Source: a virus (taxonomy: Duplodnaviria > Heunggongvirae > Uroviricota > Caudoviricetes). From it: DNA of 7,761 nt. This document shows, piece after piece, positions 1 to 7,761 of this stretch. The stretch lies in IMG/VR virus record IMGVR_UViG_2671180429_000002; one strand, written 5' to 3'. A program made the translations under genes and the position numbers. Each line of letters starts with the position of its first letter. Within the stretch, counting starts at the first letter, position 1. The notes beneath the pieces are model-generated. The model searched no databases. It was not told the DNA's origin and saw only the letters and a program-made list of their open reading frames with translations.

Positions 1-75
1 AAAACGAGTATTTTTAGTCATCCTGTTTACCTCTTTCTCAGTGAGTTTCGTCTCCAGGATTTCCGGGGCGGTTCA
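1..75 (-). mobile_element. IS3-family insertion sequence (IS629-like), left end: terminal inverted repeat plus first 7 codons of orfA; element body lies beyond the window start
   Basis: Reverse complement of 1..75 reads tgaaccgccccggaaatcctggagacgaaactcactgagaaagaggtaaacaggATGACTAAAAATACTCGTTTT, i.e. a TG-initiated terminal repeat followed by a Shine-Dalgarno (agagg) and an orfA start (MTKNTRF) as I recall for IS629/IS3-group elements. It is an imperfect inverted copy of the terminus at 7603..7628. Family identity is from memory, not a search. Confidence 0.75.
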
Positions 76-282
76 GAGCGCATAGAAGACGCTAAGCCAA
101 TTAAGTTCATGGCACAGGACGTGATCTGGCAACAGAAAGAATACAGACGCAATCTGGAGCGAGCGGCCATTGTGTACGCGAATGAGTTTGGACATAAGCA
201 ACCAGAAACTGGTGTATGTCTTCCAAACGTAGCCATTTACGCGGCAGGCTACCGGAAATCAAAACAACTGACGGCGAGGTGA
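76..282 (+). CDS. hypothetical protein; reading frame is open from the IS junction (76) to TGA at 280..282, so either the 3' remnant of a gene interrupted by the IS or a short 57-aa ORF from ATG 109
   Basis: Frame-1 translation ERIEDAKPIKFMAQDVIWQQKEYRRNLERAAIVYANEFGHKQPETGVCLPNVAIYAAGYRKSKQLTAR ends at 282. No convincing Shine-Dalgarno before ATG 109. I do not recognise the product. Confidence 0.3.
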   Translation, partial: ERIEDAKPIKFMAQDVIWQQKEYRRNLERAAIVYANEFGHKQPETGVCLPNVAIYAAGYRKSKQLTAR

Positions 283-340
283 CTTGTGTTGGTCGCCAGA
301 AAATGAAATTAGGCAGCAAACCACTTATTTGAGGTGAGAT

Positions 341-811
341 ATGACAAAATCATGGAGCGTACCTTTTCCTGAATCAGAAACTGAACATGATGGAATGCCT
401 GTTTTCTGGAGATTCCAGGCGACAGTTGAAGAAGATGGGATAAAAATATTCGCACTTCAATATATAGCTTTTCATCAGACAGAGCATTATGCATGGTTGG
501 TTCCTGCGCATTGGATTGTTAATTTTAAACCAGCACCAAATCAGTGGTTACAGGAATGGAAACAAAGGAGAAATAGATATGCAATTAAGAAAGTAGCAAA
601 AAATGCAGAAAGATCTTTTGCATTCCCAACGAAGAAACTTGCCATTGAAAGTTTATTGCGCCGGAAGAAATACCATTTAATGAGAATCAAACAAGATTTG
701 GCTGTTGTATCAACTCTTGTTGATGGTATGAAGAATATTGATACATCAACACCAGATATTGAATATAACTTTGGACACAACCAAGAAACAGAAAATTGGG
801 TATTTTATTAG
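341..811 (+). CDS. hypothetical protein, 156 aa, AT-rich orphan gene upstream of ea10 (position occupied by ral in phage lambda)
   Basis: ATG at 341 preceded by a strong Shine-Dalgarno GAGGTGA (331..337). Uninterrupted 156-codon frame. Visibly AT-rich relative to bet/exo. Basic K/R-rich segment in the C-terminal half. No motif I recognise. Confidence 0.7.
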   Translation: MTKSWSVPFPESETEHDGMPVFWRFQATVEEDGIKIFALQYIAFHQTEHYAWLVPAHWIVNFKPAPNQWLQEWKQRRNRYAIKKVAKNAERSFAFPTKKLAIESLLRRKKYHLMRIKQDLAVVSTLVDGMKNIDTSTPDIEYNFGHNQETENWVFY

Positions 812-915
812 TACGAATAAGCACTGTGTATTCATTCCAACGAGTGAATACACGGAGCAATGTCGCTCGTAACTAAACAGGAGCCGACTTGTTCTGATTA
901 TTGGAAATCTTCTTT

Positions 916-942
916 GCCCTCCAATGTGAGGGCGATTTTTTA
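916..942 (+). terminator. putative intrinsic terminator between the 156-aa ORF and ea10
   Basis: Stem GCCCTC (916..921), loop CAATGT, stem GAGGGC (928..933), followed by GATTTTTTA. Confidence 0.45.
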
Positions 943-961
943 TCTGTGAGGATATGAACAG

Positions 962-1330
962 ATGTCAAACATCAAAAAATACATCATTGATTACGACTGG
1001 AAAGCATCAATAGAAATTGAAATCGACCATGACGTAATGACAGAGGAAAAACTTCACCAGATTAATAATTTCTGGTCAGACTCTGAATACCGACTCAATA
1101 AACACGGCTCTGTATTAAATGCTGTATTAATCATGCTGGCGCAACATGCTCTGCTTATAGCAATTTCAAGCGACTTAAATGCATATGGTGTTGTGTGTGA
1201 GTTCGACTGGAATGATGGAAATGGTCAGGAAGGATGGCCTTCAATGGATGGTAGCGAAGGAATAAGAATTACCGATATCGATACATCAGGAATATTTGAT
1301 TCAGATGATATGACTATCAAGGCCGCCTGA
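962..1330 (+). CDS. ea10: lambda Ea10-like protein (ssb-like early protein), 122 aa
   Basis: 369-nt ORF of the same length and position (72 nt upstream of cIII) as lambda ea10. AT-rich. Identity recalled from lambda gene order, not searched. Confidence 0.75.
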   Translation: MSNIKKYIIDYDWKASIEIEIDHDVMTEEKLHQINNFWSDSEYRLNKHGSVLNAVLIMLAQHALLIAISSDLNAYGVVCEFDWNDGNGQEGWPSMDGSEGIRITDIDTSGIFDSDDMTIKAA

Positions 1331-1402
1331 GTGCGGCTTTACCGCATACCAATAACGCTTCACTCGAGGCGTTTTTCGTTATGTATAAATAAGGAGCACA
1401 CC

Positions 1403-1567
1403 ATGCAATATGCCATTGCAGGGTGGCCTGTTGCTGGCTGCCCTTCCGAATCTTTACTTGAACGAATCACCCGTAAATTACGTGACGGATGGAAACGCCT
1501 TATCGACATACCTAATCAGCCAGGAGTCCCAAAGAATGGATCAAACACTTATGGCTATCCAGACTAA
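1403..1567 (+). CDS. cIII: CIII protein (protects CII from FtsH), 54 aa
   Basis: ATG 1403 with Shine-Dalgarno AAGGAG (1391..1396). Translation [54 protein letters not shown] matches my recollection of lambda CIII almost exactly. The ORF-track entry 1331..1567 is the same frame with an upstream extension. Confidence 0.9.
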   Translation: MQYAIAGWPVAGCPSESLLERITRKLRDGWKRLIDIPNQPGVPKNGSNTYGYPD

Positions 1568-1679
1568 ATTCACTATCGCCACTTTTATTGGCGATGAAAA
1601 GATGTTTCGTGAAGCTGTCGACGCTTATAAAAAATGGATATTAATGCTGAAACTGAGATCAAGCAAAAGCATTCACTAA
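1536..1679 (+). CDS. kil: Kil protein (FtsZ-targeting host-killing protein), 47 aa
   Basis: Internal ATG 1536 of the 1410..1679 frame gives [47 protein letters not shown]. 144 nt, overlapping cIII by 32 nt in another frame, as in lambda. Confidence 0.85.
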
Positions 1680-1754
1680 CCCCATTTCCTGTTTTCCTAA
1701 TCAGCCTGGCATTTCGCGGGCGATATTTTCACAGCCATTTTCAGGAGTTCAGCC

Positions 1755-2051
1755 ATGAACGCTTATTACATTCAGGATCGTCTTGAGGCTCAGAGCTGGG
1801 CGCGTCACTACCAGCAGATCGCCCGTGAAGAGAAAGAGGCAGAACTGGCAGACGACATGGAAAAAGGCCTGCCCCAGCACCTGTTTGAATCGCTATGCAT
1901 CGATCATTTGCAACGCCACGGGGCCAGCAAAAAAGCCATTACCCGTGCGTTTGATGACGATGTTGAGTTTCAGGAACGCATGGCAGAACACATCCGGTAC
2001 ATGGTTGAAACCATTGCTCACCACCAGGTTGATATTGATTCAGAGGTATAA
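1755..2051 (+). CDS. gam: Gam, short form (GamS, RecBCD inhibitor), 98 aa
   Basis: ATG 1755 with Shine-Dalgarno AGGAG (1743..1747). Translation [98 protein letters not shown] is near-identical to recalled lambda GamS. Confidence 0.9.
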
Positions 2052-2056
2052 AACGG

Positions 2057-2842
2057 ATGAGTACAGCACTCGCAACGCTGGCTGGGAAGCTGGCTGAACG
2101 TGTCGGCATGGATTCTGTCGACCCACAGGAACTGATCACCACTCTTCGCCAGACGGCATTTAAAGGTGATGCCAGCGATGCGCAGTTCATCGCATTGCTG
2201 ATCGTCGCCAACCAGTACGGCCTTAATCCGTGGACGAAAGAAATTTACGCCTTCCCTGATAAGCAGAACGGCATCGTTCCGGTGGTGGGCGTTGATGGCT
2301 GGTCCCGCATCATCAACGAAAACCAGCAGTTTGATGGCATGGACTTTGAGCAGGACAATGAATCCTGCACATGCCGGATTTACCGCAAGGACCGTAATCA
2401 TCCGATCTGCGTTACCGAGTGGATGGATGAATGCCGCCGCGAACCATTCAAAACCCGCGAAGGCAGAGAAATCACGGGGCCGTGGCAGTCGCATCCCAAA
2501 CGGATGTTACGTCATAAAGCCATGATTCAGTGTGCCCGTCTCGCCTTCGGATTTGCTGGTATCTATGACAAGGATGAAGCCGAGCGCATTGTCGAAAATA
2601 CCGCATACACTGCAGAACGTCAGCCGGAACGCGACATCACTCCGGTTAACGATGAAACCATGCAGGAAATTAACACTCTGCTGATCGCCCTGGATAAAAC
2701 ATGGGATGACGACTTATTGCCGCTCTGTTCCCAGATATTTCGCCGCGACATTCGTGCATCGTCAGAACTGACACAGGCCGAAGCAGTAAAAGCTCTTGGA
2801 TTCCTGAAACAAAAAGCCACTGAACAGAAGGTGGCAGCATGA
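2057..2842 (+). CDS. bet: Bet (Red-beta single-strand annealing recombinase), 261 aa
   Basis: 786-nt ORF. Translation [44 protein letters not shown]... matches recalled lambda Bet. ATGA start/stop overlap with exo. Confidence 0.95.
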
Positions 2843-3519
2843 CACCGGACATTATCCTGCAGCGTACTGGGATCGACGTGAGAGCTGTCGAACAGGGAGA
2901 TGATGCGTGGCACAAATTACGGCTCGGCGTCATCACAGCTTCAGAAATTCACAACGTAATAGCAAAACCCCGATCAGGAAAGAAGTGGCCTGACATGAAA
3001 ATGTCCTACTTCCACACCCTGCTGGCTGAGGTTTGCACCGGTGTGGCTCCGGAAGTTAACGCTAAGGCTCTGGCCTGGGGAAAACAGTACGAGAACGACG
3101 CCAGAACCCTCTTTGAGTTCACTTCCGGCGTGAATGTTACTGAATCCCCGATCATCTATCGCGACGAAAGTATGCGCACCGCCTGCTCTCCCGATGGTTT
3201 ATGCAGTGACGGCAACGGCCTTGAGCTGAAATGCCCGTTTACCTCCCGGGATTTCATGAAGTTCCGGCTCGGTGGTTTCGAGGCCATAAAGTCGGCTTAC
3301 ATGGCCCAGGTGCAGTACAGCATGTGGGTGACGCGAAAAGATGCCTGGTACTTTGCCAACTATGACCCGCGTATGAAGCGTGAAGGACTGCATTATGTCG
3401 TGGTTGAGCGGGATGAAAAGTACATGGCGAGTTTTGACGAGATGGTGCCGGAGTTCATCGAAAAAATGGACGAGGCACTGGCTGAAATTGGTTTTGTATT
3501 TGGGGAGCAATGGCGATGA
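2839..3519 (+). CDS. exo: lambda exonuclease (Red-alpha 5'-3' dsDNA exonuclease), 226 aa
   Basis: 681-nt ORF. Translation [40 protein letters not shown]... matches recalled lambda Exo. Translationally coupled to bet (ATGA at 2839..2842). Confidence 0.95.
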
Positions 3520-3698
3520 AGCATCCTCACGATAATATCCGGGTAGGCGCGATCACTTTCGTCTACTCCGTTACAAAGCGAGGCTGGGTATTTCCCGGCC
3601 TTTCTGTTATCCAAAATCCACTGAAAGCCCAGCGGCTGGCTGAGGAGATAAATAATAAACGAGGGGCTGTATGCACAAAGCATCTCCTGTTGAGTTAA
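3516..3698 (+). CDS. lambda orf60a-like small protein, 60 aa
   Basis: ATG 3516 overlaps the exo stop (ATGA). 183 nt, same size and position as lambda orf60a. The track ORF 3510..3698 is the same frame starting two codons earlier. Confidence 0.65.
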
Positions 3699-3862
3699 GA
3701 ATGAGCATTGAGATGGCACATAGCCTTGCTCAAATTGGAGTCAGGTTTGTGCCAATACCAGCAGAAACAGACGAAGAATTTCATACGTTAGCCACATCCC
3801 TTTCACAAAAGCTGGAAATGATGGTGGCGAAAGCAGAAGCAGATGAGAGAGACCAGGTATGA
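3671..3862 (+). CDS. lambda orf63-like small protein, 63 aa
   Basis: 192-nt ORF overlapping orf60a-like by 28 nt, the same arrangement as lambda orf63. Confidence 0.65.
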   Translation: MHKASPVELRMSIEMAHSLAQIGVRFVPIPAETDEEFHTLATSLSQKLEMMVAKAEADERDQV

Positions 3863-3942
3863 CAACCACTGAATGCATTTTTCTGGCAGCGGGCTTCATA
3901 TTCTGTGTGCTTATGCTTGCCGACATGGGACTTGTTCAATGA
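3859..3942 (+). CDS. possible 27-aa hydrophobic peptide (MTTTECIFLAAGFIFCVLMLADMGLVQ), translationally coupled to orf63-like
   Basis: ATG 3859 overlaps the orf63-like stop (ATGA). Translation is dominated by a single hydrophobic stretch. Short, with no independent support. Confidence 0.3.
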   Translation: MTTTECIFLAAGFIFCVLMLADMGLVQ

Positions 3943-4154
3943 CACCTCAGCAAGAAAACGCCCTTCGCAGTATTGCCCGTCAGGCTAATTCTGAAATCAA
4001 AAAAGCCAGACAGCAGTTTCCGGATAAAAACGTCGATGACATTTGCCGTAGCGTACTGAAGAAGCACCGCGAAACGGTAACGCTGATGGGATTCACACCG
4101 ACTCATTTAAGTCTGGCGATCGGCATGTTAAACGGCGTCTTTAAGGAGCGATGA
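3939..4154 (+). CDS. hypothetical protein, 71 aa (possible counterpart of the lambda orf61 region)
   Basis: ATG 3939 overlaps the stop of the 27-aa ORF (ATGA). Translation MTPQQENALRSIARQANSEIKKARQQFPDKNVDDICRSVLKKHRETVTLMGFTPTHLSLAIGMLNGVFKER. The track ORF 3873..4154 is the same frame from an upstream ATG that lacks a Shine-Dalgarno. Confidence 0.5.
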   Translation: MTPQQENALRSIARQANSEIKKARQQFPDKNVDDICRSVLKKHRETVTLMGFTPTHLSLAIGMLNGVFKER

Positions 4155-4176
4155 ACATGAAAAGCAAAATCATCAG

Positions 4177-4197
4177 GGAGCTACAGGCTCCTTTTTT
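4177..4197 (+). terminator. putative intrinsic terminator
   Basis: Stem GGAGC (4177..4181), loop TACAG, stem GCTCC (4187..4191), followed by TTTTTT (4192..4197). Confidence 0.4.
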
Positions 4198-4252
4198 ATT
4201 ATTCGCATTCACCCTCAAGCGTATTAACCAACAATTCAGGGATTAATGAAAG

Positions 4253-4474
4253 ATGGCGGACATCATTGATTCAGCATCAGAAATTGAAGAATTACAGCGC
4301 AATACAGCAATAAAAATGCGTCGTCTGAACTACCAGACTATATCCGCCACTCATTGTTGTGAGTGTGGCGATCCCATAGATGAACGAAGACGTCTGGCCG
4401 TTCAGGGTTGTCGGACTTGTGCAAGTTGCCAGGAAGATCTGGAGCTTATCAGTAAACAGAGAGGTTCGAAGTGA
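4253..4474 (+). CDS. TraR/DksA-family C4 zinc-finger protein, 73 aa
   Basis: Translation contains CCEC...(14 aa)...CRTCASC, a CxxC/CxxC arrangement, in a 73-aa protein; size and Cys spacing are as in F-plasmid TraR and phage TraR-like proteins. Stop overlaps the GTG start of the next gene (GTGA). Confidence 0.75.
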   Translation: MADIIDSASEIEELQRNTAIKMRRLNYQTISATHCCECGDPIDERRRLAVQGCRTCASCQEDLELISKQRGSK

Positions 4475-5109
4475 GCGAAATTAACTCTCAGGCACTGCGT
4501 GAAGCGGCAGAGCAGGCAATGCATGACGACTGGGGATTTGATGCGGACCTTTTCCATGAGCTGGTAACACCATCGATTGTGCTGGCGCTGCTGGATGAAC
4601 GGGAAAGAAACCAGCAATACATCAAACGCCGCGACCAGGAGAACGAGGATATTGCTCTTACGGTAGGGAAGCTGCGTGTTGAGCTGGAAGCAGCAGAGAA
4701 CAACCTTATTGATAGTGAATGCCATGTTGCTGAACTGGAAGAAGCGCTACGCGATAAGCAGGCGTTACTTGAAGCCTCAGAAAAGCGCAACGCAAAATTA
4801 CAAAGCGAGAATGCATACATCCGCAACCGGTACAAAGAACTGGACCTGTTAATCGGGAAAAACATTCTTGTCATGCAGGCTGCGATTATCGAATGGCAGG
4901 CAACTGGCGACGCTAAAAGCGGACTGGCATGGATTTATAACACACTGTTTGGCCCAGGCGAATTGCCGGACGAATCTGAGAAAGATGCTCAGGCCTACTT
5001 TAATCGCAAATATGCACCGATTGACGAAAAGCTTATGGAGCTTCACAAGTGGTTTTGGGAACAAAGTGAAGCCGAGCGCGCCGCTGGCATTCGCATCAAA
5101 GGAGAGTGA
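4471..5109 (+). CDS. Ea22-like protein, 212 aa, with coiled-coil centre
   Basis: GTG start at 4471 coupled to the upstream stop. The N-terminus (MSEINSQALREAAEQAMHDDWGFDADLFHELVTPSIVL) and C-terminus (AGIRIKGE) resemble what I recall of the Ea22 family. The central region is rich in E/L/K/R heptad-like sequence. Confidence 0.7.
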   Translation: MSEINSQALREAAEQAMHDDWGFDADLFHELVTPSIVLALLDERERNQQYIKRRDQENEDIALTVGKLRVELEAAENNLIDSECHVAELEEALRDKQALLEASEKRNAKLQSENAYIRNRYKELDLLIGKNILVMQAAIIEWQATGDAKSGLAWIYNTLFGPGELPDESEKDAQAYFNRKYAPIDEKLMELHKWFWEQSEAERAAGIRIKGE

Positions 5110-5110
5110 G

Positions 5111-5866
5111 ATGATTCACTACCACGGTGGGCCTATTACTCCTGATACGTGCGCAATGAGAGCATGGAAAGGGCGACATGCGTTTATCAGTTTTGCGCAT
5201 TCAGGCCAGATCAATCTCGCGGCTGAATACTGTCAGTCGTTCGCGCTGGACAACGGTGCATTCACCGCCTGGAAAGCAGCTGGCAAAAACAAAATCGACT
5301 GGAGCGATTACTACGAGTTTGTTGCTCGCTGGAAGAATCACCCAGGATTCGATTTTGCCATTATCCCGGATGTTATTGATGGCGGAGAGGAGGAAAATGA
5401 TGCGCTTCTGAATGAGTGGCCTCACGGAAAACTAGCTGGCGTTCCAGTGTGGCACATGAATGAAAGTGACGAGCGATTTATTCATTTGTGCAATGAGTTT
5501 CCGCGAGTGGCTATCGGTAGTTGTGGCGACTATGACGTAAAGCGCCCAACTCTTGCGGTAGCCAGAATGAAAGACCTGATTCGTCACATTGTTGATGGGC
5601 ATGGTCAGCCGGTTACGAAACTACATGGATTGCGCATGTTAAATCCGCTGATATTCACAAAATTACCCTTAGCCAGCGCAGATAGTACGAACGTCGCTCG
5701 AAACATCGGTATTGATAAAGCCTGGTCTGGGGCTTATGCACCTGCAAGTAAAGAGACACGCGCAGCATTAATGGTAGAACGGATTGAGGCACACAATAGC
5801 CCTGGTTCTCTTGCGTATTGTGAACAACGCGACCGCTTTGAAATGCAATTGCAACTAGCACTTTAA
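5111..5866 (+). CDS. TGT-superfamily (queuine/archaeosine tRNA-ribosyltransferase-like) protein, 251 aa, lacking the zinc-binding subdomain; DpdA-like candidate DNA-guanine transglycosylase
   Basis: ATG 5111 with Shine-Dalgarno GGAG (5101..5104). By eye the sequence aligns to bacterial Tgt catalytic motifs: ALDNGAF (D47) to LTDSGGFQ, FAIIPDV (D87) to IVMIFDE, RVAIGSCG to GYAVGGLAVG, and ASADSTNVARN (D191) to MFDCVMPTRNARN. No CxCxxC...H zinc motif. The track ORF 4868..5866 is the same frame with an unlikely upstream extension overlapping the Ea22-like gene. Confidence 0.7.
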   Translation: MIHYHGGPITPDTCAMRAWKGRHAFISFAHSGQINLAAEYCQSFALDNGAFTAWKAAGKNKIDWSDYYEFVARWKNHPGFDFAIIPDVIDGGEEENDALLNEWPHGKLAGVPVWHMNESDERFIHLCNEFPRVAIGSCGDYDVKRPTLAVARMKDLIRHIVDGHGQPVTKLHGLRMLNPLIFTKLPLASADSTNVARNIGIDKAWSGAYAPASKETRAALMVERIEAHNSPGSLAYCEQRDRFEMQLQLAL

Positions 5867-5876
5867 GGACTAACAA

Positions 5877-6674
5877 ATGACCACTATTACCAAAGAACGT
5901 ATTGAATTGTTCATTAAAAATCCGCTTGAAAACGGGCTTACTCGTGGCGAACAAATGGAACTGGCACGAATTGCACTGGCATCACTGGAACGCGAACTGA
6001 TTCGCCACGAGCATGCCAAATGGTCTGACTCCACATTTGGCTGCGTTGGCCCCATTGGTCCACTGAAACACCTCTCAAAAGAGGCTCTGGAAGCCGCAGC
6101 CGAACCAGACGATCTCAGCGAGTGGGCTGATATGCATTTCCTGTTGTGGGATGCACAGCGCCGTGCTGGCATCAGCGATGCTGAAATTACCGCTGCTATG
6201 GAAGATAAATTGAAGATCAACATGGAGCGCCAGTGGCCTGAACCAAAAGATGGTGAGCCTCGCTTGCACATTAAAGAACCCGGCAACTCTCCGGTAATTC
6301 CGGATGGTTTATCCACGGTATGCGCTGAGGCTTATCAGGTTGTAGGAGTTATGGCAGATGCGCTTGGTGTATTCGGTGATGCAGCAGTACAGAAAGTTCT
6401 GGATAACCTGTCACAGCAAAAACTTGTTCACAGAGATGTGCTGCCGTTCTCGCTTCCGGTGACTCCGGATGGTTGGATAAGCTGTAGTGAGCGAATGCCG
6501 AAAGAAACGGGTGACATTATTGTTGTTTCGGATGGCATTGTAATGTCCGGGATTTCTTATTCTCGTCGTGACGGGTTCTATATAACCGCATTGGAGTACG
6601 ACGACGATGAGCCAATTGGCGGTGTAACCCACTGGATGCCTCTACCAGAACCGCCTCGATTAAAGGAGCTATAA
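5877..6674 (+). CDS. MazG-like (all-alpha NTP pyrophosphohydrolase, DUF550-type dATP/dGTP pyrophosphohydrolase) N-terminal domain fused to a DUF551-type phage C-terminal domain, 265 aa
   Basis: ATG 5877 with Shine-Dalgarno AAGGA (5865..5869). N-terminal region carries paired acidic motifs KEALE...(8 aa)...EWAD as in MazG/HisE-like pyrophosphohydrolases. C-terminus ends HWMPLPEPP, typical of prophage DUF551 proteins as I recall them. Confidence 0.7.
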   Translation: MTTITKERIELFIKNPLENGLTRGEQMELARIALASLERELIRHEHAKWSDSTFGCVGPIGPLKHLSKEALEAAAEPDDLSEWADMHFLLWDAQRRAGISDAEITAAMEDKLKINMERQWPEPKDGEPRLHIKEPGNSPVIPDGLSTVCAEAYQVVGVMADALGVFGDAAVQKVLDNLSQQKLVHRDVLPFSLPVTPDGWISCSERMPKETGDIIVVSDGIVMSGISYSRRDGFYITALEYDDDEPIGGVTHWMPLPEPPRLKEL

Positions 6675-6788
6675 TAGTGAACTATTATATCTATTTGTAT
6701 TAAAAGAGTTTTTATAAAATAAATCTTCCAAAGCATGTAAAAACACTGTTAATCTTAACGTGTGTGAAACGTGAAGAGAGGTGTTGAA

Positions 6789-7070
6789 ATGAGCATTCAT
6801 GATTTGTGTGAAGATCAAGAGCAATGGGCTATGCAGACCCTTATGGGATCAGGAGTTCTTGCAAGGTGCAGAATCCATAACGATGTAATTTTAGACAGCG
6901 GAAATGATGCTTCTTCTGCTTATAAATTAGGAACTTACCTATATCAAAAAGATAATAGCTGCAACTTATTCAATACTCTTACTGAAGCCCGCGACGCAAT
7001 AAAGGATGCATATGAATCGTATTGTGGGATCGATGATTGCCCACAATGCTCAAAATACATTGACGATTAA
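6789..7070 (+). CDS. ea8.5: Ea8.5-like protein, 93 aa, Cys-containing
   Basis: ATG 6789 preceded by AGAGAGGTG. 282 nt, the same size as lambda ea8.5 and at the same position relative to xis (296-nt gap). Contains CGIDDCPQC. AT-rich. Confidence 0.7.
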   Translation: MSIHDLCEDQEQWAMQTLMGSGVLARCRIHNDVILDSGNDASSAYKLGTYLYQKDNSCNLFNTLTEARDAIKDAYESYCGIDDCPQCSKYIDD

Positions 7071-7090
7071 TAATATGAACAAGTAACTAT

Positions 7091-7116
7091 CCTCGCACTC
7101 GCGGGGATTTCTTTTA
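7091..7116 (+). terminator. putative intrinsic terminator (first of a tandem pair after ea8.5)
   Basis: CCTCGC / GCGGGG stem (with one G-U pair), loop ACTC, followed by ATTTCTTTTA. Confidence 0.35.
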
Positions 7117-7120
7117 TCTG

Positions 7121-7146
7121 AACTCGCTACGGCGAGTTTTGTTTTA
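7121..7146 (+). terminator. putative intrinsic terminator (second of the tandem pair)
   Basis: Stem AACTCGC (7121..7127), loop TACG, stem GCGAGTT (7132..7138), followed by TTGTTTTA. Confidence 0.45.
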
Positions 7147-7158
7147 TGGAGATGATAA

Positions 7159-7326
7159 ATGCACTTCCGAGTTACAGGTGAATGGAATGGAGAACCATTC
7201 AACAGAGTTATCGAAGCCGAGAACATCAGCGACTGCTATGACCACTTGATGCTGTGGGCGCAGATAGCACATGCAGACGTAACCAATATTCGAATTGAAG
7301 AACTGAAAGAACACCAAGCCGCCTGA
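7159..7326 (+). CDS. hypothetical small protein, 55 aa, between ea8.5 and xis
   Basis: ATG 7159 with GGAG (7148..7151). Translation MHFRVTGEWNGEPFNRVIEAENISDCYDHLMLWAQIAHADVTNIRIEELKEHQAA. Its stop lies in the loop of a terminator hairpin. Confidence 0.45.
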   Translation: MHFRVTGEWNGEPFNRVIEAENISDCYDHLMLWAQIAHADVTNIRIEELKEHQAA

Positions 7327-7339
7327 TGGCGGTTTTTTC
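7318..7339 (+). terminator. putative intrinsic terminator upstream of xis
   Basis: Stem CCGCC (7319..7323), loop TGAT, stem GGCGG (7328..7332), followed by TTTTTT (7333..7338). Confidence 0.5.
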
Positions 7340-7365
7340 TTGCGTGTAATTGCGGAGACTTTGCG

Positions 7366-7584
7366 ATGTACTTGACACTTCAGGAGTGGAACGCTCGCCA
7401 GCGACGCCCAAGAAGCCTTGAAACAGTTCGTCGATGGGTGCGCGAATGCAGGATATTCCCTCCTCCGGTTAAGGATGGCAGAGAGTATCTGTTCCACGAA
7501 TCAGCGGTAAAGGTTGACTTAAATCGACCAGTAACAGGTAGCCTTTTGAAGAGGATCAGAAATGGGAAGAAGGCGAAGTCATGA
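7366..7584 (+). CDS. xis: Xis excisionase, 72 aa
   Basis: Translation MYLTLQEWNARQRRPRSLETVRRWVRECRIFPPPVKDGREYLFHESAVKVDLNRPVTGSLLKRIRNGKKAKS is near-identical to recalled lambda Xis. 23-nt overlap with the int start, as in lambda. Confidence 0.9.
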   Translation: MYLTLQEWNARQRRPRSLETVRRWVRECRIFPPPVKDGREYLFHESAVKVDLNRPVTGSLLKRIRNGKKAKS

Positions 7585-7603
7585 GCGCCGGGATTTACCC
7601 CCT
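7562..7603 (+). pseudogene. int: int (lambda integrase) 5' fragment: first 14 codons only (MGRRRSHERRDLPP), interrupted by IS insertion
   Basis: ATG 7562 encodes MGRRRSHERRDLPP, matching the recalled lambda Int N-terminus. At 7603/7604 the sequence switches to an IS3-family terminal repeat (TGAACCGCCCCGGG...) and the reading frame stops at 7638..7640. Confidence 0.8.
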
Positions 7604-7761
7604 GAACCGCCCCGGGTTTCCTGGAGAGTGTTTTATCTGTGAACTCAGGCTGCCAGATCATTATTTCCGATGGAAGCATAATAAGCTTTTTCTGCTTCTG
7701 CCGGAGGAATATGGCCCAGCCTTTCCAGCAATCGTCGATTGTTATACCAGTCCACCCACGT
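7603..7761 (-). mobile_element. IS3-family insertion sequence (IS629-like), right end: terminal inverted repeat and 3' end of the transposase gene; element continues beyond the window end
   Basis: TGAACCGCCCCGGGTTTCCTGGAGAG at 7603..7628 is an imperfect inverted copy of the terminus at 51..75. The minus strand of 7645..7761 encodes an IS3-type transposase C-terminus. Confidence 0.8.
7645..7761 (-). CDS. IS3-family transposase OrfB, C-terminal 38 codons (partial; 5' part lies outside the window)
   Basis: Minus-strand translation from the window edge gives TWVDWYNNRRLLERLGHIPPAEAEKAYYASIGNNDLAA, ending at the stop whose complement is 7645..7647. This resembles IS3-family OrfB C-termini as I recall them. 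Confidence 0.75.
   Translation of the reverse strand, partial: TWVDWYNNRRLLERLGHIPPAEAEKAYYASIGNNDLAA

Follow-up and report, generated by a model that had tools for sequence, protein, structure and literature searches.

IS629/IS1203-type elements truncate N and int at the two ends of the early-left arm of a lambdoid Escherichia coli prophage

Introduction

The insertion sequence (IS) IS629 is the most abundant IS of enterohaemorrhagic Escherichia coli (EHEC) O157, and 62% of its copies in O157 genomes lie within prophages (PMC3271280). Upon insertion it generates target duplications of 3-4 bp (PMC3271280). Many gene inactivations and deletions can be traced to IS629, and its excision, which depends on the IS-excision enhancer (IEE), leads to adjacent deletions (PMC9943667). 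In the lambdoid prophages of O157 Sakai, IS insertions are among the defects, and some of these prophages still move with the help of other prophages (PMC2669165). Here we describe a stretch of 7,761 nt (IMG/VR virus record IMGVR_UViG_2671180429_000002; “the window” denotes this whole stretch). It is the early-left (pL) arm of a lambdoid E. coli prophage, i.e. its recombination and excision arm, with an IS629-type copy at each end. One copy is placed in the antiterminator gene N, after codon 59, and the other in the integrase gene int, after nt 41.

The closest described systems are the lambdoid prophages of EHEC and Shiga-toxin-producing E. coli (STEC), such as the Sp and CP-933 prophages of O157 Sakai and EDL933. 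Like the window they carry a 1310-bp IS3-family element, with ends that are 97-99% identical. The outcome is also the same, namely insertionally inactivated phage genes and defective prophages prone to IS-mediated deletion (PMC3271280, PMC2669165). They differ in that the junctions at N codon 59/60 and at int nt 41, in the present orientation, occur together in no record searched. The disabling of prophages by IS629 in Shiga-toxin-type E. coli is already well documented, and the window is one more instance. New is this pair of junctions, of which the left one is so far unique among the records searched.

In gene order and content, including the cIII RNA thermoregulator and the Ea22-type genes, the window resembles the pL operons of phage lambda and of the Shiga toxin phage 933W. 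The latter is 98.7% identical to the window over 66% of the window length, but matches only up to position 7341; the xis-int part of the window is of the lambda type, as in prophages adjoining torS. In contrast to both phages, the two terminal genes of the arm are IS-truncated in the window. Composite transposons are a further point of comparison, since there too a passenger is flanked by two direct IS copies with a valid outer pair of left and right terminal inverted repeats (IRL and IRR). However, nothing indicates that the present block moves as a unit: no second copy of it was found in the collections searched, and no duplication is visible around it. Its passenger is simply the part of a prophage between two independent insertions.

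Results

Both ends of the window are IS termini

Protein and RNA family searches (Pfam, PHROGs, Rfam) revealed the order of a lambdoid pL arm on one strand: N, ea10, cIII, kil, gam, bet, exo, further genes, xis and int. Relatives in complete genomes and phages carry a collinear arm inside a prophage adjoining the attachment site. The features that make up the two junctions are:

1..75, minus strand: IS629/IS1203-type element, orfA-proximal end (IRL 51-75; the body continues leftward past the window)
76..282, plus strand: 'N, 3' remnant of a 933W-type N (PF25694 N_peptide, E = 1.3e-10)
7366..7584, plus strand: xis (excisionase), intact, 72 aa (PF07825, E = 3.9e-41)
7562..7602, plus strand: int', first 41 nt of a lambda-type integrase gene (sequence comparison with the relative L002)
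7603..7761, minus strand: IS629/IS1203-type element, orfB-distal end (IRR 7603-7627; the body continues rightward past the window)

Positions 1-75 match the IRL/orfA end of annotated IS3-family (IS1203/IS629) elements at 97.3% identity over 75/75 bases (E = 4e-30). Positions 7603-7761 match the IRR/orfB end of the same elements at 97.5-99.4% over 159/159 bases (E about 2e-78). The reference copies are 1310 bp long each and annotated as “IS3-like element IS1203 family transposase”. The inward-facing termini of the window, 51-76 and 7602-7627, form an imperfect inverted repeat of 26 nt with 88% complementarity. The alignment of the IRL (reverse complement of 51-75) to the IRR (7603-7627) runs through 13 identical bases, 3 mismatches and 9 further identical bases. 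Imperfect terminal repeats of about 25 bp that begin 5'-TGAACCGCCCC, together with the high nucleotide identity to the reference copies at both ends, assign the two elements to the IS629/IS1203 group of the IS3 family.

Both elements lie on the minus strand. Read as the reverse complement, positions 1-75 start with the terminal repeat TGAACCGCCCCGGAAATCC... and reach into orfA, whose first 7 codons, ATGACTAAAAATACTCGTTTT (MTKNTRF), are encoded by the complementary strand of 1-21, with the start codon being the complement of 19-21. The right element begins at 7603 with TGAACCGCCCCGGGTTTCC... and contains the C-terminal end of orfB, 38 codons on the minus strand (7645-7761), with the complement of 7645-7647 as stop. 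A programmed -1 frameshift and a pseudoknot are annotated in the matching full-length IS copies; the window itself holds 7 orfA and 38 orfB codons.

The left end is thus an IRL whose element extends leftward, and the right end an IRR whose element extends rightward. This fixed orientation implies two distinct, directly repeated copies in a chromosome, since a single copy would require an 8.8-kb circle without an origin. The initial annotation had read both window ends as minus-strand, directly repeated IS629-like copies, and the terminal identity as well as the inverted repeat agree with this. The left end differs from the known copies by two substitutions, T42 and C49, between the IRL and the orfA start. 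This variant was absent from about 22,000 IS629-like copies in 5,426 complete E. coli genomes, and also from IMG/VR and JGI metagenome contigs.

The left insertion interrupts N

An alignment to the intact N of two relatives (L001 and L002) showed that codon 60 of a 127-codon 933W-type N begins at base 76. The open reading frame (ORF) at this position, for which a gene remnant had been suspected, therefore consists of N codons 60-127 plus the stop and covers positions 53-100 of the 100 positions of the PF25694 profile. The lost part of N, MTRRTQFKGNSRSRRRERLKAKA..., includes the arginine-rich motif, which itself reads TRRTQFKGNSRSRRRERLKAKA. pL and nutL are also missing from the window and would lie on the far side of the left IS. 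A functional prophage has a complete N that includes this motif and is connected to pL and nutL, which is not the case here. The arm had been described as an ea10-to-xis block between the IS copies. While the bracketing holds, the block opens with 'N and a 156-aa ORF and not with ea10.

The left IS is a second defect besides the cut in int. It was overlooked in the initial annotation and is arguably the more severe of the two, because it uncouples the arm, xis included, from N-dependent transcription from pL. As a side observation, frame 1 of the plus strand is open from the first base of the window through the antisense orfA side and the IRL into 'N (1-282), which on paper yields a fusion ORF.

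The right insertion interrupts int

At the right junction xis is intact, as had been noted before. The int ATG is located at 7562 and the native int sequence extends over 41 nt (7562-7602, GGGATTTACCCCC), directly followed by the IS. Int codon 14 is completed by the first T of the IS, and after 26 codons (MGRRRSHERRDLPPEPPRVSWRVFYL) the frame reaches a stop. A cut after int codon 14 had been proposed; it indeed occurs after about 14 codons, but the ATG is one base later than had been implied, leaving 41 native nt. In relatives the intact int comprises 1074 nt (357 aa) and reads on with ...CCCCCTAACCTTTATATAAG. Instead of the intact tyrosine recombinase gene of a functional prophage, only 41 of the 1074 nt are contiguous with xis. 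If the remainder of int lies beyond the IS, it is in any case separated from its start by 1.3 kb.

Comparable insertions in xis-int

Two junction-shaped queries against the complete E. coli genomes served to gather IS629-group insertions in lambda-type xis-int, and all that they could pick up were included. This provided 13 independent insertions of 1310 bp. In 12 of the 13 a target duplication of 3-4 bp was present and the rest of the gene followed directly behind the IS. The duplications were CCC (twice), CTG, GCC, TGC, ATG, GTC, AGA, GGT, AATC and AAG, and the remaining one was imperfect. The thirteenth case (L043; NZ_CM129861.1, strain SW070919, 2160-3500) carries the IS after int nt 37, followed by sequence from deep within int. 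The replacement of int nt 38 onward by this sequence indicates an IS-adjacent deletion.

By analogy, the right IS of the window would most likely have inserted in the same simple way, with int resuming beyond it; a rearranged flank would be unlikely there, but its probability is not negligible. This analogy covers xis-int only, there being no comparable insertion sample for the N site.

Including the window, four of the 14 sites fall within 5 bp, at int nt 37-41 (window 7598-7602), in both orientations. In the window the IS is inserted after nt 41 in minus orientation. In the O157:H7 locus Z1830-Z1833 (L042) the same phosphodiester is occupied in opposite orientation, with the duplication CCC and the rest of int following. 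In AUSMDU00014361 (L003) the insertion is after nt 39, 2 bp upstream of that in the window, again with the duplication CCC. The fourth site is that of SW070919, after nt 37 and with the deletion; there the IS is likewise opposite to that of the window. These three prophages share with the window the interrupted lambda-type int, but they differ in being located at ybhC, in carrying other early-left arms and in having no IS in N. The insertion set contains ten further loci (L033-L041 and L044). Overall, 11 of the 14 sites are found from 60 nt upstream to 64 nt downstream of the int start, i.e. within about 125 bp around the overlap of the xis stop and the int start.

Int nt 37-41 thus looks like a recurrent insertion hot spot of IS629/IS1203 elements. 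A scan statistic for four sites in 5 bp gave P ~7e-4 for sites uniformly distributed over the detectable 800 bp and 0.015 over 270 bp; as the queries were centred here, an ascertainment bias remains in both values. Targeting through a resemblance to the IS629 terminal repeats, as in other IS3-family members, was considered as an origin of the hot spot and found to be unsupported: in local alignments to these repeats the site scored 13, compared to 18 for the best position elsewhere in xis-int and 17.8 ± 2.1 for shuffled sequence.

Two IS629-type copies also occur in the same arm of a related prophage adjoining torS (L006, AP024478.1; 2081-3294 and 4863-6076). They are in inverted orientation, one between N and ral and the other in gam. 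This double insertion shows that multiple IS in this arm are not unusual.

Searches for the junctions and their outer flanks

A megablast search with the whole window against 5,426 complete E. coli genomes, 50,697 phage records and 72,556 plasmids returned no record with both junctions. The left junction was found nowhere, neither in these three collections nor in GTDB species representatives, IMG/VR and JGI metagenomes by an exact-pattern scan. Queries with the junctions alone did not return the exact right junction, with the same position and orientation, either; the insertion 2 bp away in L003 (H79) was the nearest case. When GTDB representatives, IMG/VR and JGI metagenomes were scanned for the exact pattern, the right junction was detected only in one IMG/VR contig (L022). 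It is 100% identical to window 1214-7628 and breaks off after 26 bp of IS sequence. An NCBI draft contig (L012) corresponds to window 3784-7600 at 99.9% and stops 2 bp short of the junction. That these two contigs also stop at or near the right junction suggests that the window, which ends inside an IS on either side, is most likely an entire short-read contig that ended where the assembly met a multi-copy repeat.

For the outer sides, reciprocal junctions are predicted in which the N 5' part is joined to IRR, and IRL to the int 3' part. IMG/VR contained neither of them when the length of the duplication was allowed to vary. Exact look-ups of the 265-aa and 212-aa proteins, which are very widespread, gave no flank. 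The look-up of the 57-aa N remnant returned only contigs in which N is cut at the contig end or a shorter start was called. One match (H1) that seemingly spans 76-7761 was rejected as spurious, since an IS copy located elsewhere had been joined to it.

Probable origin and consequences of the two insertions

We consider it likely that the lambdoid prophage whose pL arm makes up the window received two separate, directly oriented and probably simple IS629/IS1203-type insertions in N and int and was left defective, the host being an IS629-rich, STEC-like E. coli. The positions of both insertions are given by the sequence itself. Each IS would then be a complete 1310-bp element that arrived by ordinary copy-out-paste-in insertion with a 3-4 bp target duplication. 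Beyond the left IS one would expect pL, nutL and N codons 1-59, ending ...CACGAAACGCCT and perhaps with a repeat of GAG. Beyond the right IS the remaining ~1030 nt of int, starting from (CCC)TAACCTTTATATAAG, and the attachment site should follow.

The N remnant and the cut in int constitute two separate disabling lesions in the prophage. Lacking the arginine-rich motif that binds boxB and being severed from pL and nutL, 'N should not support antitermination past the intrinsic terminators of the arm. With N lost and terminators located in the arm, gam, bet, exo and xis should not be expressed from pL and, going by established lambda biology, would be silent on induction. The 26-codon int' product would lack the catalytic domain, such that the prophage could not excise unless a co-resident prophage supplied the same integrase in trans.

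Being flanked by two direct repeats, the block is deletable, and to call it prone to deletion is reasonable. RecA recombination between the IS copies would remove the 7.5-kb block and leave N'::IS::'int, while the deletions associated with the IS-excision enhancer that are known for IS629 may provide a second route. What the data show is a “defective” or “grounded” prophage; “domesticated”, the term used in the initial annotation, would imply selection.

Several points weigh against this explanation. The window contains no outer flank, such that the completeness of the IS, the target duplications and the rest of N and int are expected rather than seen. The left junction occurs in no other record searched, and the left-end substitutions could be private mutations or contig-end errors. 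In addition, with one deletion among 13 comparable insertions a rearranged flank is not rare.

The last point leads to IS-mediated rearrangement, i.e. adjacent deletion, inversion or recombination between IS copies of different prophages. It would place unrelated DNA beyond one or both IS, with the missing parts of N and int gone or located elsewhere. In SW070919 an IS only 4 bp upstream of the int site of the window has lost the int sequence that followed, and IS629-associated and IEE-dependent deletions are documented (PMC9943667; PMC3271280). A survey of O157 found matching target duplications at only 21/47 IS629 sites (PMC3271280), and the arm itself is a mosaic between prophage types integrated at different sites (see below). 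Given that 12 of the 13 comparable insertions in xis-int are simple, with target duplication and contiguous gene remainder, we nevertheless regard such a rearrangement as unlikely.

An assembly chimera, in which one or both IS ends were wrongly joined at a collapsed repeat and the arrangement does not exist in the cell, is very unlikely. Both window ends do stop within a multi-copy repeat, and the left 75 bp carry the two substitutions unmatched in any other IS629-like copy at a junction seen in no other record. However, at both junctions the phage sequence gives way to the IS precisely at its terminal TGAACC... base, which is what true transposition produces, and the homology of the relatives resumes exactly at base 76. 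Moreover, the right junction recurs at 100% identity in an independent database record (L022), and the same int phosphodiester is occupied by an IS in O157:H7 Z1830-Z1833.

It is very unlikely that the IS629 pair and the 7.5-kb block with the gam-bet-exo Red genes and xis form a mobilisable composite or translocatable unit that transfers a recombination module independently of the phage. The modest variant of this proposal, a preference of IS629-group elements for int nt 37-41, would, if true, mean that these elements repeatedly ground prophages at the start of lambda-type int. Least probable of all is that the pair and the enclosed block are a composite transposon or an excised circle that moves gam-bet-exo-xis between replicons. 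The direct orientation does provide one IRR and one IRL as outer ends, formally a valid pair, and since the contig runs into one and the same repeat on either side, its topology would allow an 8.8-kb circle. However, a second site of the block with these junctions was not found in the complete genomes, phages and plasmids searched. In all relatives the arm occupies its usual position in a prophage adjoining the attachment site, and the segment has no replication origin, such that a circle could not be maintained.

Two insertions in a lambdoid prophage remain the preferred explanation. The prophage was hit twice by IS629, which should remove both N-dependent early transcription and the integrase. 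In IS-rich E. coli, junctions of this kind are where short-read contigs break off, as the window illustrates. When strains are typed or risks assessed, the arm should probably be taken as part of a prophage that no longer excises or is induced normally and in which IS-mediated deletions are liable to occur. Those who study IS target choice or prophage decay could find some modest interest in the repeated insertion at int nt 37-41. Beyond annotation there is little consequence.

Gene content and mosaic structure of the arm

Between the two truncated genes the arm contains the following features:

341..811, plus strand: 156-aa phage ORF of unknown function (phrog_1636, E = 2.7e-112; no Pfam match)
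962..1330, plus strand: ea10 (DUF2528; PF10800, E = 2e-47)
1390..1448, plus strand: lambda cIII thermoregulator RNA element (Rfam RF01804, 88.5 bits, E = 3.7e-21)
1403..1567, plus strand: cIII (PF02061, E = 9e-29)
1536..1679, plus strand: kil (PF06301, E = 2e-20)
1755..2051, plus strand: gam (PF06064, E = 3.4e-65)
2057..2842, plus strand: bet, RecT family (PF03837, E = 2.7e-33)
2839..3519, plus strand: exo, lambda exonuclease with YqaJ domain (PF09588, E = 2.6e-30)
3516..3698, plus strand: small ORF, DUF1317
3671..3862, plus strand: small ORF, DUF1382
3939..4154, plus strand: small ORF, phrog_303
4253..4474, plus strand: TraR/DksA-type zinc-finger protein (PF01258, E = 3.9e-9)
4471..5109, plus strand: Ead/Ea22-like protein (PF13935, E = 2e-23)
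5111..5866, plus strand: 251-aa protein of a phage queuine tRNA-ribosyltransferase-like family (phrog_887, E = 2.3e-103; no Pfam match)
5877..6674, plus strand: dATP/dGTP pyrophosphohydrolase plus DUF551 (PF04447, E = 1.1e-41; PF04448, E = 7.5e-14)
6789..7070, plus strand: ea8.5-like protein (PF20735, E = 9.2e-16)
7159..7326, plus strand: 55-aa phage ORF (phrog_676, E = 5.8e-39)
914-935 (T-run after), 1354-1373, 4175-4193, 7089-7108, 7120-7139 and 7316-7335, plus strand: strong terminator-like hairpins, at least six in the arm

Counted on both strands, the window has 20 terminator-like sites compared to 7.4 ± 3.1 in shuffled sequences, i.e. such sites are enriched. Terminator-like hairpins spread through the arm fit an operon that depends on antitermination by N.

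The arm is a mosaic of two prophage types. Positions 76-6503 are 99.1-99.2% identical to prophages adjoining mlrA (yehV), whose int differs, while 5077-7608 are 99.7% identical to prophages adjoining torS, which have the lambda-type int. The two match ranges imply a recombination joint somewhere in 5077-6503. The queuine-type gene (5111-5866) is located directly 5' of the pyrophosphohydrolase gene (5877-6674), and the pair could relate to nucleotide or DNA-base modification.

Finally, a 111,450-bp record of strain SM107 that is classed as a plasmid (NZ_CP130669.1; H25/H138) contains 82% of the arm at 98.4% identity (29322-36834). The match reaches int (window 217-7608), and the record may be a phage-plasmid or a misassigned replicon.

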